The position numbers were made by a program, and so were the translations under genes. A stretch of 64,000 bases of DNA from a virus. Positions 1-64,000 of the stretch are shown here, in pieces; the first letter of the stretch is position 1, and the number at the start of each line of letters is the position of its first letter. The stretch lies in the IMG/VR virus record IMGVR_UViG_3300045988_168418. One strand, 5' to 3'. Below the pieces are notes generated by a model. The model saw only the letters and a list, made by a program, of their open reading frames with translations, was not told the DNA's origin and made no database searches.

Positions 1-134
1 TATTTTCTTGAACAGAAATTACTCTTACAGGTTGACCAGATTTTAAAATTGGTGTCATTGATTGCCCAAAACCTACAATAATACACTCTTCACCATTCCT
101 TAAATGTTCTGCTGTTATTGCATTTTCTTTTCCT
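1..134 (-). CDS. hypothetical protein, N-terminal part (gene continues beyond window start); possible S24-peptidase-like G-x-SM-x-P motif
   Basis: Reverse complement of 1-134 opens with ATG and reads MFKGKENAITAEHLRNGEECIIVGFGQSMTPILKSGQPV... with no stop before the window edge. Confidence 0.3.
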
Positions 135-392
135 TTAAACATCTTTTTTTCCTTGTAAATTTTTTATTAAATCAATTATTTCTTTATTTTGAGCAATAAT
201 AATATTATTTTCCTCATGCAATTCTTCAATTTCATTTGAGATCGCTTTAATTACATTATTAATATAAGTTGTTTGCTGTTCATCTTGAGACATATTACTT
301 AACTGCGTGCAAAAACTTACTATAGTTAATATATCAAGAAACTCTAATTGCTGACCATCTCCATTATTATTGCCATTATTTCTCATAATCAT
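135..392 (-). CDS. hypothetical small coiled-coil protein
   Basis: 85-aa ORF on the dominant coding strand; Q/N/E-rich. Confidence 0.35.
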   Translation of the reverse strand: MIMRNNGNNNGDGQQLEFLDILTIVSFCTQLSNMSQDEQQTTYINNVIKAISNEIEELHEENNIIIAQNKEIIDLIKNLQGKKDV

Positions 393-514
393 TTTATTTC
401 TCCTTTTTATTAAATTATATCATTTTTTAAGAAAAAACTCAAATATGAAAAATTGAAACAAAAATTTCCAAAACCAATTTTGATTTTGAAAATCGGGCGT
501 AGACCGCCCGGTAG

Positions 515-2314
515 TTAAAAGTAATATTGACTAGAATCAACAATTTCATAATCTTCAATAAAAATTTGAGGATTTACATATCCTTGCCATTCATTCTTAT
601 TACATTTACCTACCAAATCAATAGCTACATATCCATCCTCTGAAAATAATTTTTCGTATTCCTCTTGAGAAGAATTGAATTTAATTAAAGAAATATTATT
701 TGGTAAAGTTATTTTTAAAGTAGGTTTTTTATCTGGTGACATTAAAGTTATCATGTCTTTTGTAATTGTTAAACCTTTAATCGCAACTAAAGGTTCTTCC
801 ATATCTTTTCCCCAAAGACAATCTAATGAAGCTATATCAAGAATATTTTCTGCTTTAACTTGATTTCCTTCGTAAATATAATCTACTAAATAAATTGGTT
901 CAGACGACATGAATTTAAGAACTTCATCTGTATAATCTAAAAACAAAAGTATAGATTCACCCCAAACTTCTTCATCATAGTCTTTTTGACCTAGATATAG
1001 ACTCAAACCAAATGCGTTTGGATGTCCTTCCGCGAATTCTACCCCTGGTGCGGATTCACACAATTTTTTAAAATTAGCAACTCCGCCTTTCTCATATCCT
1101 CTCGCAGAACCTTGATAAAAAATCTTATTTTCATCTTCAACTTGAGTTAAAATGCAACAAGGTCTTTGATACTTTGACATAAACTTATTTGCGATTAATC
1201 CAGCTATATTAGAATTAATCTCTCCTGGTTTAAGTAAAAACAATAGCACTTTGTGATCTAATAAATGCTTCTTTTCAATTTTATCTTCTAAGAGTGTCAT
1301 TCCTACATCTTGAGCTTTTGTCTGTCGATTTTTAACATTGATTGCAGTTCTAATTGCTTGAAGCACTAATGGCTCTTCTTCTCCTTCTTTATGTCCCCTT
1401 TTTGTAGAAGGTATTTTTTTTGAAGCTTCAAATTTAAGCATTGATTTAAAAACAATATGTTTTTCTTCTAAAGTACCGCTTCTAGCAATAGCATTAACAA
1501 AAGGTGCAATGTAAAACGCAGCTCCCATAGGAGTGATATTTTTTCCTAATGAATAACTATTTCTATCTGCTATATATACGATAAAAGGGTTCTGGATATT
1601 TTCATTTTTAAATCCCTTTGTAATTAAATGCCTAGTCTCAAAAGAAGTCATACTCATCATATCTGCCATTAGACCTAATGCAACTAAATCTACATAATCT
1701 TCGGCATAATTAGTTTTCATAATTAAATCTATATATCTGCAAAATTGCCATACTATACCAACACCAGATAGCTGTTTATTTGGATAGTCACTTAATTGAT
1801 TATTTATAACAATAGCATTTTCACTTATATGATCAGCTTTATGATGGTCTAGAACTAAAACATCTATTCCTTTCTCGTTTAACATTTTATGTTCTTCAAA
1901 ATTGTTACTTGAAGAATCTGGGCAAATGACTAAAGAATAGTCTTTTTCAAGAATTATATCTTTACAATCCTTTAATCCATGCTGTTTCCCGCTATGAACT
2001 AACCACTCTACTTTTGAAAGAGTATATCGCGGAAAATGGTCATATAAAAAGTTAATTAAAACAGCACTGCTGGTAAAACCATCACAGTCAGAATCTACTA
2101 TGATTAAAGTTTTTGTATTATTATAAATTGCTTTTAAAAGTACAGCAACGCCTTCTTTTAATACCTTTTCTCCTAACTCTAAAGGCGAATAAATGTCATT
2201 ATCAGTAGTATTCAAATAATGTTTAATATCTTCATGTTTGATTCCACGATTTGTTAAAATTTGCTCTATCGCGGAATATTTTAAATTAACAGGTTTAATT
2301 AACTGGTATTTCAT
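515..2314 (-). CDS. DHH-family phosphoesterase (RecJ-like ssDNA exonuclease or nanoRNase)
   Basis: DHH motifs IVDSDCDG and VLVLDHHKADH; C-terminal DHHA1-like GHPNAFG. Confidence 0.6.
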   Translation of the reverse strand: MKYQLIKPVNLKYSAIEQILTNRGIKHEDIKHYLNTTDNDIYSPLELGEKVLKEGVAVLLKAIYNNTKTLIIVDSDCDGFTSSAVLINFLYDHFPRYTLSKVEWLVHSGKQHGLKDCKDIILEKDYSLVICPDSSSNNFEEHKMLNEKGIDVLVLDHHKADHISENAIVINNQLSDYPNKQLSGVGIVWQFCRYIDLIMKTNYAEDYVDLVALGLMADMMSMTSFETRHLITKGFKNENIQNPFIVYIADRNSYSLGKNITPMGAAFYIAPFVNAIARSGTLEEKHIVFKSMLKFEASKKIPSTKRGHKEGEEEPLVLQAIRTAINVKNRQTKAQDVGMTLLEDKIEKKHLLDHKVLLFLLKPGEINSNIAGLIANKFMSKYQRPCCILTQVEDENKIFYQGSARGYEKGGVANFKKLCESAPGVEFAEGHPNAFGLSLYLGQKDYDEEVWGESILLFLDYTDEVLKFMSSEPIYLVDYIYEGNQVKAENILDIASLDCLWGKDMEEPLVAIKGLTITKDMITLMSPDKKPTLKITLPNNISLIKFNSSQEEYEKLFSEDGYVAIDLVGKCNKNEWQGYVNPQIFIEDYEIVDSSQYYF

Positions 2315-2499
2315 TTAATTTCCTCCAAAGTAATATTTTTTTTACATTGAGGACAATTAATATATTTTTCATAATAAACTGGCATGATGCCCAAACAGTC
2401 TGATTTTGTTTTTACATCCTCTTCTTCATAACTAAATAAACATCCACATTCCTTACATTCTTGAATTTTTCTTGTTCCTTTTCTTATTATTTTAATCAT
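2311..2499 (-). CDS. small zinc-ribbon protein
   Basis: 62 aa with two CxxC pairs (CKECGC ... CPQCKK). Confidence 0.35.
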   Translation of the reverse strand: MIKIIRKGTRKIQECKECGCLFSYEEEDVKTKSDCLGIMPVYYEKYINCPQCKKNITLEEIK

Positions 2500-2766
2500 A
2501 ATACTCTCCTTATAAATAATAAACTAAAATTTCAACATCTATATTTTTAAAATACATTAAATAATATTTCTTTTACTTTATTCCATTTTAATTTATCTAA
2601 TTCACATCCAATTTTTGGCATTGCTATTTTTTTTAATATTATTTTCTCTAATAATAATAATAATTTTCATCCAAGACAAAGAACTCTCTAATGACTCATA
2701 AGATGGCTTACTATAGTATCTTTCTTTAATAAACTATATAAAAGTACCCAAATCTATCGGACATCG

Positions 2767-63215: not shown

Positions 63216-63258
63216 TTTGATATAATAATTATATCATAATTTTTAAAAAAAATAAAGT
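63216..63258 (-). promoter_or_regulatory. conserved promoter/5'UTR motif
   Basis: ttttgatataataattatatcataatttttaaaaaaaataaag. Confidence 0.45.
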
Positions 63259-63313
63259 TATATAAATATAAACTATTTATATAACTTTATGCTCTATTAT
63301 TTTATTCTTTTAA

Positions 63314-63574
63314 TTAAAATAAATCATCTTCATCTTCATCTTCATCTTCATCTATTGTTTTTCCATAGTTATCATCTACCTTTAAAGCGTGCTTCATTTC
63401 ATAAGTCATGAAAAGACCTACTATAAAGCTAGCTATTACTATAGATATAACTGATGCTACCCAAAGCGGTAAACCAAAAGCCCAACTTATAATCAGTCCA
63501 AGACAGTAAATCCCTCCAAGGTACAGCATAATTGTTCCTAATATGCAAGCAATTCCCATTAAAAAGAAAAACAT
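63314..63574 (-). CDS. small membrane protein with (DE)n acidic tail (cassette copy 2, gene B)
   Basis: MFFFLMGIACILG...DEDEDEDEDDLF. Confidence 0.4.
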   Translation of the reverse strand: MFFFLMGIACILGTIMLYLGGIYCLGLIISWAFGLPLWVASVISIVIASFIVGLFMTYEMKHALKVDDNYGKTIDEDEDEDEDDLF

Positions 63575-63591
63575 TTTTAATTTTCTCCTTC

Positions 63592-63894
63592 CTATTTTAT
63601 TTTCTTCATCATCATATCTCCGTCATAAAGGATATATTCTGGCGGAGTATGCGGAAAGAAAAATTCTTTAATTTGTTCAATCTCTTTTATTGTAATACCT
63701 GACTTAAAATCTCCTGAAAGTGTAACTGCCGCCAATGTTTCAGCGTCAGTAATCTCAGTGTGATTATACCAATTTTCTGCTTTTGCTTTAAAACTTGCTT
63801 TCAAATTTAAAGTTAGCGGAAAACCTTCTAATTTAAAGAAAGTTTCAATTTCTTTCATTGTAGCTTCGATCAGTTTTGTGTTTATCATATACAT
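63592..63894 (-). CDS. hypothetical protein (cassette copy 2, gene A)
   Basis: Paralogue of 62888..63196. Confidence 0.4.
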   Translation of the reverse strand: MYMINTKLIEATMKEIETFFKLEGFPLTLNLKASFKAKAENWYNHTEITDAETLAAVTLSGDFKSGITIKEIEQIKEFFFPHTPPEYILYDGDMMMKKIK

Positions 63895-64000
63895 ACCTCT
63901 TTCTTTTGATACATTTTATATAATTATATGATTATTATATCATATTTTTTTAAAAAAATAAAATATATATAATAACAATAATTATATATTTTTATATTAT

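Follow-up and report, generated by a model that had tools for sequence, protein, structure and literature searches.

The minus strand of a 64,000-nt stretch of viral DNA (IMG/VR record IMGVR_UViG_3300045988_168418, in the following called the window) contains about 39 strong copies of one promoter cassette, which is composed of a −35 element, an extended −10 element, an A/T-only discriminator and a purine-rich start region. The cassettes are probably early promoters that are read by the host sigma-A and are tuned toward stable open complexes, promoter escape and translation starts without structure, and that also serve as recombination linkers. The window has a G+C content of about 30%, its open reading frames (ORFs) lie nearly all on the minus strand, and a block of 29–30 tRNA genes is located at 43.3–56.7 kb. 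A megablast search with 12 kb yielded no DNA match to GenBank phages, and protein searches for window proteins reached at most about 38–39% identity, with the DnaB-like helicase being nearest to Herelleviridae and SPbeta-like phages (about 38%). The closest contig, IMGVR_UViG_3300045988_178161, was about 93% identical over the recovered parts and is called the relative below. Therefore, the window is part of a large, uncultured, low-GC phage.

Number and distribution of the cassettes

The minus strand of the window contains 20 exact matches to the string TATGATATAAT, and the plus strand contains two. An iterated position weight matrix (PWM) of the whole motif converged on 37 minus-strand sites. 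When the PWM was limited to the region from −35 through −10, 40 minus-strand sites scored at least 10 bits and 39 at least 18 bits. The respective numbers were three and zero for the plus strand, and the means were 0.55 and 0.05 for first-order Markov random sequences. The scores were bimodal, and the lone weak site (3772, 13.4 bits), which lies within an ORF, is probably not a real promoter and was left out of the count. All cassettes are intergenic and have the same orientation as the genes. A generic sigma-70 scan did not separate the cassettes from the AT-rich background (112 sites versus 85.5 expected), and its terminator rule, which requires at least three G-C pairs, misses AT-rich hairpins, so that it was replaced by a dedicated PWM and RNAfold. 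No paper describing this cassette was found in a literature search for the literal motif TATGATATAAT.

An initial annotation, made from the letters of the window, had described the repeat as a minus-strand promoter with a −35 and an extended −10, downstream of which comes a short leader with a Shine-Dalgarno (SD) motif and an ATG. This description was correct, and so was the notion that the repeat is reused many times, but the proposed number of more than 40 copies was slightly too high. The 14 example coordinates all turned out to be real cassettes, with the last T of the −10 at 29398, 44421, 47831, 49330, 50455, 52782, 54926, 55256, 56909, 59717, 61550, 62550, 63228 and 63934. A spacing of 17 nt had been assigned to the interval between TTGATT and TATGATATAAT, but it applies to the interval between TTGATT and TATAAT.

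Anatomy of the promoter and the start region

The alignment of the 37 sites was gapless, and the spacing of the hexamers was 17 nt at every site. The consensus of the −35 is TTGATT, and its first four positions were occupied by the consensus base in 36, 37, 28 and 35 sites, respectively. The spacer consists of a T-run, an A-run and then TATG-A. Within the extended −10, the T, A, T and G were present in 34, 32, 37 and 30 sites, and each of the six positions of TATAAT was invariant. The cassette thereby has the features of the sigma-70/sigma-A extended −10 class, i.e., a −35 similar to TTGACA, a spacer of 17 ± 1 nt, and TRTG together with TATAAT. TATG-N-TATAAT is reportedly the TRTG "−16 region" that is typical of Gram-positive sigma-A promoters.

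The −10 is followed by a discriminator of 6 nt that contains only A and T (consensus aAATAT, variants TATTAT/AAATAT). Offset 7 after TATAAT is an A in 35 of the 37 sites and is preceded by T or C in 32, and the consensus from offset 8 onward is T, c, A, A, A, A, g, A, A, A, g. Such a geometry, in which the purine at +1 lies seven bases past the −10 and is preceded by a pyrimidine, is canonical for start sites. Transcription is predicted to start at the A seven nucleotides after TATAAT, consistent with a purine start 6–8 nt downstream of the −10. With +1 at offset 7, the first six bases of what had been annotated as one conserved leader are most likely not transcribed. The leader thus splits into these six discriminator bases, about eight bases at the start, and a variable tract that extends to the SD motif.

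The similarity among the copies ends sharply near −36 and near +20. With the local A-rich composition as background, the information in the 22 positions that follow the −10 amounted to 7.08 bits, compared to 1.24 bits (maximum 2.11) in 2000 within-site shuffles, and the signal was concentrated at offsets 4–10 (TATATCA). Conservation beyond the hexamers, as proposed initially, is thus real, but the literal leader ATCAAAAGAAAG was present at only about 10 sites, and others have, for example, ATAAGAAAT or ATAATAAAAG.

The T-run/A-run spacer often forms a perfect ATTTTTTAAAAAAT palindrome (e.g., 54936–54949), and it is conserved also in copies that lack a hairpin. A subfamily of cassettes (56909, 55256, 52782, 50455 and 46146) carries AAAAATCTTAA directly upstream of the −35, and this sequence was also found in other, unrelated viral contigs. 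Neither feature is accounted for by standard promoter models, and each of them could be a protein-binding site or a DNA-shape element.

Leader, SD motif and translation start

Twenty sites with a close ORF were aligned in two ways. Alignment on the −10 reproduced the TATATCA peak at offsets 4–10, and alignment on the ATG yielded a separate GAGG/GGAG peak at −11 to −8. Between these peaks, only the composition was informative; this part is a purine tract of variable length, (AAAG)n, that runs into the GAGG SD motif. The ATG is located 21–46 nt after the −10, so the predicted 5′-untranslated regions (5′-UTRs) have lengths of 15–40 nt, with a median of about 28 nt. In agreement with the initial annotation, GAGG/GGAG was found 7–10 nt before the start codon in about 20–25 ORF-leading sites. 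The TATATCA element was present irrespective of whether an ORF, a tRNA or an unclassified RNA comes next. This presence, together with its register with the −10 and not with the ATG, points to a promoter-intrinsic element that consists of the discriminator and the initially transcribed sequence. The cassette is not primarily translational, because about 10 copies have no ORF and lead to tRNAs or to other, GC-richer RNAs.

The purine fraction of positions +1 to +20 was 0.84 at ORF-leading sites, 0.78 at sites without an ORF within 60 nt, and 0.57 for the whole strand, and C made up only 2–4% of these positions. The start-codon regions of cassette genes had a median minimum free energy of −0.05 kcal/mol, compared to −2.4 kcal/mol for the other genes (p = 0.0014). 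Positions −30 to −16 contained 62% A and 3% C in cassette genes versus 46% A and 8% C in non-cassette genes, and the idea that the purine tract merely reflects the composition of ribosome-binding regions was therefore rejected. One ORF of 60 aa (11823–12005) is a candidate for a leaderless mRNA, as its ATG coincides with the predicted +1 (TATAAT-ataaat-ATG). Rfam searches over 43–57 kb, using the gathering score and E ≤ 1, retrieved tRNAs only and no leader, riboswitch, ribozyme or small RNA family.

Comparison with the relative

In the orthologous comparison, the overall identity of the window and the relative was 93.7%. Both hexamers were more highly conserved (98.7%), which points to selection on them, and the identity of the spacer was 95.7%. 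In contrast, the discriminator (91.0%) and the first 14 transcribed bases (92.0%) did not exceed the genome mean, and thus the expected constraint on the leader between orthologues was not borne out. The differences in the leader were A/G or A/T changes around the consensus as well as gains and losses of AAAG units. The exact 29-nt string of −10 plus leader was found in only one other IMG/VR contig, which is the relative. Two indels between the phages are bounded by cassettes. Around 50455, the window has a single cassette, whereas the relative has a cassette, an extra tRNA-like gene and a second cassette, and at the tandem pair 59717/59633 of the window, the relative has one copy.

Related phages and bacterial promoters

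As the exact string was too narrow, the degenerate core pattern TTGATTTTTTNNAAAANNTATGATATAAT was used to reach the wider clade. It matched more than 120 stretches of IMG/VR contigs. Homologues of window proteins, with about 40–80% amino-acid identity, are encoded at 93 of 119 viral loci, and the density of core sites was 5.3 per 10 kb at the viral loci versus 6.1 per 10 kb in the window. At 439 unique viral core sites, the G+C content of the discriminator was 2%, −1 was T in 89%, +1 was a purine in 98%, and purines accounted for 83% of positions +1 to +14. The leader profile of the window, with a match defined as a score above the 99th percentile of random 20-mers, was matched by 74% of these sites.

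The same core was detected in contigs of gut and rumen Clostridia metagenome-assembled genomes (MAGs), often upstream of tRNA genes, which supports recognition by the host sigma-A. Bacterial core sites often carry GC-containing discriminators such as ACCCTGCGTTGAC. At the bacterial loci, the discriminator G+C was 15%, and only 23–39% of the sites matched the leader profile. The bacterial sites that did match were located at loci of lower GC content and more often with phage homologues (odds ratio 3.6, p = 0.019). Taken together, the core appears to be the strong-promoter consensus of the host, while the AT discriminator and the purine start appear to be a phage-associated addition that is kept by selection across the clade.

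Hairpins upstream of the cassettes

RNAfold predicted hairpins of −8 kcal/mol or below that abut the −35 with a gap of 0–2 nt in 9–11 of 40 copies. The remaining copies either lack a hairpin or come after the 3′ end of a tRNA, and two additional copies begin immediately after such an end. In the fused copies, the U-tract of the hairpin doubles as the −35 (TTTATT) and the T-run of the spacer. Six of the eight copies with a degenerate −35 (TTTATT/TTTATA) are clearly fused to a hairpin; of the other two, 35434 has a weaker hairpin (−5.5 kcal/mol, gap 6), and 63934 is too near the window end to be folded. The abutting hairpins are predicted to be terminators of the upstream units.

Relation to known systems

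The closest precedents are the PeSL cassettes, the T5 early promoters and the SPO1-type early units, and the cassette is ordinary in kind. In T4-type phages, the PeSLs (promoter-early stem-loops) unite a strong sigma-70-like promoter with a stem-loop terminator and an SD/ATG, and modular shuffling is mediated by these units (Arbiol et al. 2010, PMC2839356; Comeau et al. 2014, PMC4122927). Like the PeSL, which has a size of about 100 bp, the cassette is a composite unit with dozens of repeats between small, mostly orphan genes. Further common features are the strong sigma-70-like promoter, the predicted stem-loop that adjoins some of the copies here, the SD motif and ATG at the 3′ end, and indels between close relatives that are bounded by copies (two here). 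However, the phage is not T4-like, as its helicase is nearest to Firmicute phages (Herelleviridae, SPbeta; 38%), and the promoter is of the Gram-positive type with TRTG, with MAG matches that point to Clostridia. In addition, only about one copy in four carries the hairpin, which is AT-rich and located upstream of the −35, whereas PeSLs have a stem-loop in nearly every copy, with stems that are typically GGGG/CCCC and are located between or over the hexamers. A further difference is that the cassettes drive tRNA genes, too. Because the phage is not a T4-like myovirus of Gram-negative hosts, the cassette is an analogue of the PeSL and not a member.

The T5 early promoters (N25, P25, P26) also have near-consensus hexamers and AT-rich surroundings, and the early promoters of that phage share with the cassettes a non-template strand that is rich in purines and in A/T between +1 and about +20. 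The region downstream of the start is reportedly conserved among T5 early promoters. An "anti" version of the purine/AT-rich initially transcribed sequence of N25 lowered productive transcription about 10-fold (PMC12464699). In N25, how fast the polymerase escapes from the promoter depends on this region, which may act likewise in the cassette. The host polymerase is a different one, and the cassette additionally has the TRTG extended −10 and the T-run/A-run spacer.

The takeover module of SPO1, a large virulent phage of Firmicutes, is said to contain many small early genes in short units, each with a sigma-A promoter and a ribosome-binding site (RBS) that are both strong. The window resembles SPO1 and the Herelleviridae in having many small genes in short units with a strong promoter and RBS, and its helicase is nearest to this family. 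However, no DNA similarity was detectable, the proteins are at most about 38% identical, and the cassettes are spread over the whole 64 kb, including replication genes and the 30-gene tRNA array, and are not confined to a terminal-repeat module. With Pveg (TACAAT-AAATGT-A), a strong constitutive promoter of the type that does not respond to the initiating NTP, in contrast to rrn P1 promoters, the cassette shares a consensus −10, an AT discriminator and a +1A, a likeness that represents a functional analogy only. The SPO1 early genes have been described as sigma-A-dependent (PMC13401047). In Bacillus subtilis, the region from −10 to +1 sets how stable the open complex is, along with the sensitivity toward the initiating NTP (Sojka et al. 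2011, PMC3113569).

Proposed function and alternative explanations

According to the proposed explanation, the housekeeping sigma factor of the host (sigma-A/sigma-70 type) would read the cassettes as strong promoters, and the phage would use them to express its early and middle genes (small genes and replication genes) and the tRNA array. The AT discriminator, the +1A and the purine-rich start would result in stable open complexes and fast promoter escape. By analogy to B. subtilis, an AT discriminator with +1A should give GTP-insensitive complexes, and as escape from N25 depends on its purine/AT-rich initial sequence, the purine start should likewise speed escape. The cassettes would be strong and insensitive to GTP/stringent control of the host, unlike host tRNA promoters with the same core. 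In front of ORFs, the purine tract that runs into the GAGG SD motif would yield a 5′-UTR of 22–40 nt, serve as an unstructured ribosome landing site and make translation efficient. Where the terminator hairpin of a preceding unit abuts the promoter, as in about a quarter of the copies, it would insulate the units from one another. Furthermore, the cassettes would be homology patches for the gain, loss and duplication of gene or tRNA modules, because the copies match one another almost completely over about 50–60 nt.

The anatomy, the counts, the register, the phage-versus-host contrast and the cassette-bounded indels are direct observations. Several points weigh against the proposed explanation. 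The start of transcription, the strength, the timing and the sigma factor used are predictions from the DNA sequence. The discriminator and leader are not extra-conserved (91–92% vs. 93.7%), which suggests that selection is weak or compositional; such values are compatible with a tuning role but are no proof of it. Only two of about six indels relative to the relative are cassette-bounded, and about four are not. The T6A6 spacer is not accounted for by standard promoter models. Lastly, Clostridia are suggested as hosts only by the core in MAG contigs, some of which are phage DNA that was binned into MAGs.

Different roles of the conserved bases have to be weighed against the proposed explanation. 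The initial annotation had suggested that a leader-specific factor acts at the transcripts, and the transcribed part (AUCAAAAGAAAG...) would then be the recognition site for a dedicated RNA-acting factor such as an endoribonuclease, a translational enhancer-binding protein or an antiterminator. A precedent is RegB of T4, which cuts GGAG in early SD regions. Such a role would be in line with the position specificity of the downstream conservation, with the association of the leader with phage contigs and not with host promoters that share the core, and with its persistence across a clade in which proteins have diverged to 40–80% identity. However, the most informative offsets 4–10 straddle the predicted start and are in register with the −10 and not the ATG, half of the "leader" is probably untranscribed, and the element is equally present before tRNAs. 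The transcribed tract varies by AAAG slippage, and its conservation between orthologues is not above the genome mean (92.0% vs. 93.7%, with 98.7% for the hexamers); this lack of sequence-exact constraint argues against a tight-binding leader-specific factor, so the suggestion found no support. Antitermination of the Q type and the sigma-dependent promoter-proximal pause have a different architecture, with a −10-like element at about +1 to +6 of the transcript and a Q-binding element at one or few late promoters before a read-through terminator, whereas about 39 copies each head a short, separately terminated unit here, and the TATAT repeat is located at −3 to +2, overlapping the start, and not at +1 to +6. 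Pfam scans of 37 window ORFs yielded no RNA-binding or RegB-like candidate and no Q-like protein, although most of the small ORFs match nothing. An RNA-acting factor is an unlikely explanation. Equally doubtful is a more far-reaching idea, namely that TATAAT-ATATAT-R-T-AA-purines is a clade-wide phage address label that is read by a phage factor (a DNA switch protein or a RegB-like nuclease) and is at the same time a universal exchange linker, i.e., a family-wide PeSL counterpart in Firmicute phages. This label could then be common to hundreds of large gut and rumen Clostridia phages.

The phage specificity of the discriminator and start signature would also be expected if a sigma factor encoded by the phage, or a polymerase modified by it, read the promoters and used the AT discriminator as specificity determinant. 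This is very unlikely, as the −35, the spacing, the TRTG and the TATAAT are the textbook sigma-A consensus, the identical core is found before host tRNA genes in bacterial contigs, and Pfam scans revealed no sigma factor gene among the annotated window ORFs. Known phage sigma promoters (SPO1 gp28, gp33/34) depart from this consensus. It is likewise very unlikely that the copies are similar mainly due to recent duplication or gene conversion, as in a mobile element or a repeat that spreads, and that selection does not act beyond the hexamers. Duplication does occur, as is evident from the tandem duplicates 59717/59633 and 35531/35434, the paralogous two-gene units at 62.6–63.9 kb with a cassette on each, and the cassette-bounded indels, and the leader without extra conservation between orthologues would fit as well. 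Nevertheless, the consensus with its AT discriminator, T(−1)/R(+1) and purine start recurs at the 439 unique viral sites, in contigs with proteins that are 40–80% identical and with unrelated flanks, and the edges of the similarity (about −36 and about +20) are sharp. Terminal inverted repeats and target duplications are lacking, and the orientation always follows the direction of transcription. A miniature inverted-repeat transposable element or another mobile element was rejected for the same reasons, i.e., no inverted termini and strict co-directionality with the genes.

If the cassettes are host-read promoters as proposed, several uses follow, while current concepts remain unchanged. The cassette PWM is an annotation rule for transcription units in a clade of large, uncultured, low-GC gut and rumen phages. 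The cassette predicts very short, unstructured 5′-UTRs and the one candidate leaderless mRNA, and it could provide compact strong promoter/RBS parts for Clostridia-type hosts. The phage promoters (AT discriminator, +1 purine) and the host tRNA promoters (GC-containing discriminator) share the same core and constitute a natural experiment on how phages may evade growth-rate and stringent control of the host in Firmicutes. Judging from the cassette-bounded indels, modular shuffling of the PeSL kind may extend beyond T4-type phages.

Catalogue of the cassettes

The 39 copies are listed in Table 1. The copy at 63914..63962 is atypical, as its ATCAAAAGAAAG leader is located 19 nt farther downstream and its −10 is not conserved in the relative. 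The leader of 63208..63256 differs from that of the relative by an indel of an AAAG unit, and the 10-nt duplication of 35414..35462 is missing from the relative. The ORF 62888–63196 is a paralogue of ORF 63592–63894. In the region 62620–63962, a unit of two genes, for a protein of about 100 aa and then a small acidic-tailed membrane protein, is present as two tandem paralogues that both have a cassette, which is evidence that cassette-plus-gene modules were duplicated recently. No Pfam match was obtained for the first genes of the units at 57–64 kb.

Table 1. Cassettes of the window. Coordinates run from −35 to +14; scores are those of the −35/−10 core PWM; dG is the free energy of the abutting hairpin; domain assignments are from Pfam.
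Feature	Coordinates	Strand	Score (bits)	dG (kcal/mol)	Downstream feature or remark
Cassette, −35 TTTATT	63914..63962	−	35.7		ORF 63592-63894 (100 aa, no Pfam match)
Cassette + hairpin, −35 TTTATT	63208..63256	−	35.2	−10.8, gap 0	ORF 62888-63196 (102 aa)
Cassette + hairpin	62530..62578	−	32.5	−8.9	ORF 61946-62515 (189 aa)
Cassette + hairpin	61530..61578	−	34.8	−10.1	ORF 60780-61514 (244 aa)
Cassette + hairpin	59697..59745	−	35.7	−11.8	Upstream member of tandem pair 84 nt apart
Cassette, −35 TTGTTT	59613..59661	−	31.0		ORF 59267-59599 (110 aa), ATG 33 nt past −10
Cassette	58975..59023	−	24.7		ORF 58575-58958 (127 aa); identical in relative
Cassette	57646..57694	−	27.6		ORF 57321-57635 (104 aa)
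Weak cassette-like site, −10 CATAAT	56961..57009	−	19.8 (core-only PWM)		72 nt upstream of next cassette
Cassette with AAAAATCTTAA	56889..56937	−	35.9		No ORF; ~220 nt GC-richer RNA, then tRNA-Ile(tat) 56613-56690
Cassette directly after tRNA-Trp	55647..55695	−	36.3		ORF 55309-55632 (cREC_REC domain)
Cassette with AAAAATCTTAA	55236..55284	−	35.0		No ORF; ~270 nt RNA without Rfam match
Cassette without ORF	54906..54954	−	37.2		~100 nt ORF-free RNA, then next cassette
Cassette without ORF	54755..54803	−	34.2		182 nt upstream of tRNA-Tyr
Cassette	54070..54118	−	33.8		91 nt upstream of tRNA-Gln (53928-53999)
Cassette with AAAAATCTTAA	52762..52810	−	35.9		ACAGCAAT hairpin element, then apparently intron-split tRNA
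Cassette with AAAAATCTTAA	50435..50483	−	35.9		Two copies at this place in relative
Cassette	49310..49358	−	25.9		40 nt upstream of tRNA-Ile (49217-49290)
Cassette directly after tRNA-Ser	47811..47859	−	28.7		ORF 47455-47799 (~114 aa)
Cassette with AAAAATCTTAA	46126..46174	−	33.1		ACAGCAAT hairpin element, then tRNA-Pro/Met/His group
Cassette, top-scoring	44401..44449	−	38.2		ORF 44152-44388 (78 aa)
Cassette directly after tRNA-Cys	43247..43295	−	32.1		ORF 41718-43199 (DUF2828/DUF7788)
Cassette	39299..39347	−	27.4		Metallophosphatase ORF 38560-39285
Cassette + hairpin	35511..35559	−	27.4	−11.2	Upstream member of tandem pair 97 nt apart
Cassette with 10-nt internal −10 duplication	35414..35462	−	33.8		ORF 34549-35388 (DUF7192)
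Cassette	33229..33277	−	26.6		Major-vault-protein-like ORF 30720-33206
Cassette	30502..30550	−	33.7		ORF 30250-30486 (78 aa)
Cassette + hairpin	29378..29426	−	35.7	−8.3	ORF 29075-29362, then RNA ligase ORF
Cassette + hairpin, −35 TTTATA	27360..27408	−	31.7	−8.6	ORF 27001-27357
Cassette-like site + hairpin, −35 TTGCTT	25621..25669	−	23.6		ORF ending at 25169
Cassette	21944..21992	−	23.7		ORF 21372-21917 (DUF5662)
Cassette	20819..20867	−	27.9		First gyrB piece 19500-20771
Cassette	15573..15621	−	22.6		gyrA 13180-15528
Cassette, predicted +1 = A of ATG	11992..12040	−	34.0		ORF 11823-12005
Cassette, −35 TTGACA	11786..11834	−	23.0		ORF 11451-11726
Cassette	9637..9685	−	27.5		ORF 9237-9614 (weak helix-turn-helix matches)
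Cassette, −35 TTGACA, then (AAAT)n run	9182..9230	−	22.3		ORF 8185-9135
Cassette + hairpin	6009..6057	−	32.1	−15.0	ORF 5485-6000, then DnaB-like helicase
Cassette	394..442	−	24.2		ORF 135-392 (85 aa)

Additional elements of the tRNA array

Several ORF-free, GC-richer stretches follow cassettes on the minus strand (about 56880–56700, 55240–54965, 54900–54840, 54750–54600 and 53400–52860). The ORF-free stretches in the tRNA region resemble structured RNAs, and Rfam yielded no match to them at E ≤ 1.

The array also contains a hairpin-bounded element with the structure AAGAYNN(N)-ACAGCAAW-(30–100 variable nt)-complement-CTTG. Minus-strand copies are located at 43656–43598, 46127–46064, 47433–47310, 50166–50090, 51582–51501, 52758–52696 and 54509–54448, and the element is present at many other loci (e.g., L004, L006, L016, L022, L063, L073, L085 and L098). 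It lies 3–8 nt from adjacent tRNA genes, and the interval from tRNA-Tyr to tRNA-Asp is taken up precisely by one copy. Across all loci, 89 of 263 occurrences of ACAGCAAW have a perfect 7-nt closing stem (12–18 in controls), and the 46 different closing-stem sequences represent covariation. Some interiors hold a T-arm-like GGTTCGAATCC, and no Rfam family matches the element. It may be a tRNA-like RNA that is processed together with the array.

An apparent tRNA gene at about 52680–51865 (minus strand), which was not called by ARAGORN, is split by an insertion of about 750 nt. Its 5′ half is TGCCCTGTAGTCCAATGGTAGAAC, and the 3′ half with the T-arm and acceptor lies near 51895–51865. The insertion contains an ORF region (51967–52555) with zinc-ribbon/helix-turn-helix features. 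The ORF inside a tRNA and the absence of the 588-nt ORF-bearing segment from the relative suggest an intron with a mobile endonuclease gene. A truncated tRNA-like sequence of 57 nt (43481–43537, minus strand; Rfam 41 bits) was also missed by ARAGORN.

Gene content of the window

Pfam searches identified replication and DNA proteins (a RecJ-like nuclease, the DnaB-like helicase, GyrA and a split GyrB) as well as an endolysin, PhoH, an RNA ligase, a major-vault-protein-like and a flotillin-like protein. The last two are unusual in a phage. The vault-like protein (30720–33206, minus strand, 828 aa) has major vault protein shoulder and Vault_3 domains, and its GenBank phage matches were only the metagenomic huge phages LR756500, LR756501 and LR756503 (462–735 kb), with 39% identity. 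The SPFH/flotillin-like protein is encoded at 35611–37080 (minus strand).

The gyrB gene (15752–20771, minus strand) is present in at least four pieces, i.e., an N-terminal part (19500–20771), a Toprim fragment (18170–18367), a C-terminal part (15752–15934) and a piece without a Pfam match (16938–17198) that was assigned by position only. Between them lie ORFs for GIY-YIG endonucleases (18558–19295, 17321–18013 and 16084–16773), which are presumably parts of introns with homing endonucleases. Additional GIY-YIG ORFs are found at 44830–45504 and 10400–11212. A (CGCT)n-like microsatellite, CGCTCGCTCGCTCGCC, is located at about 45525–45545 (minus strand), just upstream of the start of the GIY-YIG ORF at 45504, and an (AAAT)n microsatellite at about 9160–9200 (minus strand) lies in the leader after cassette 9202.

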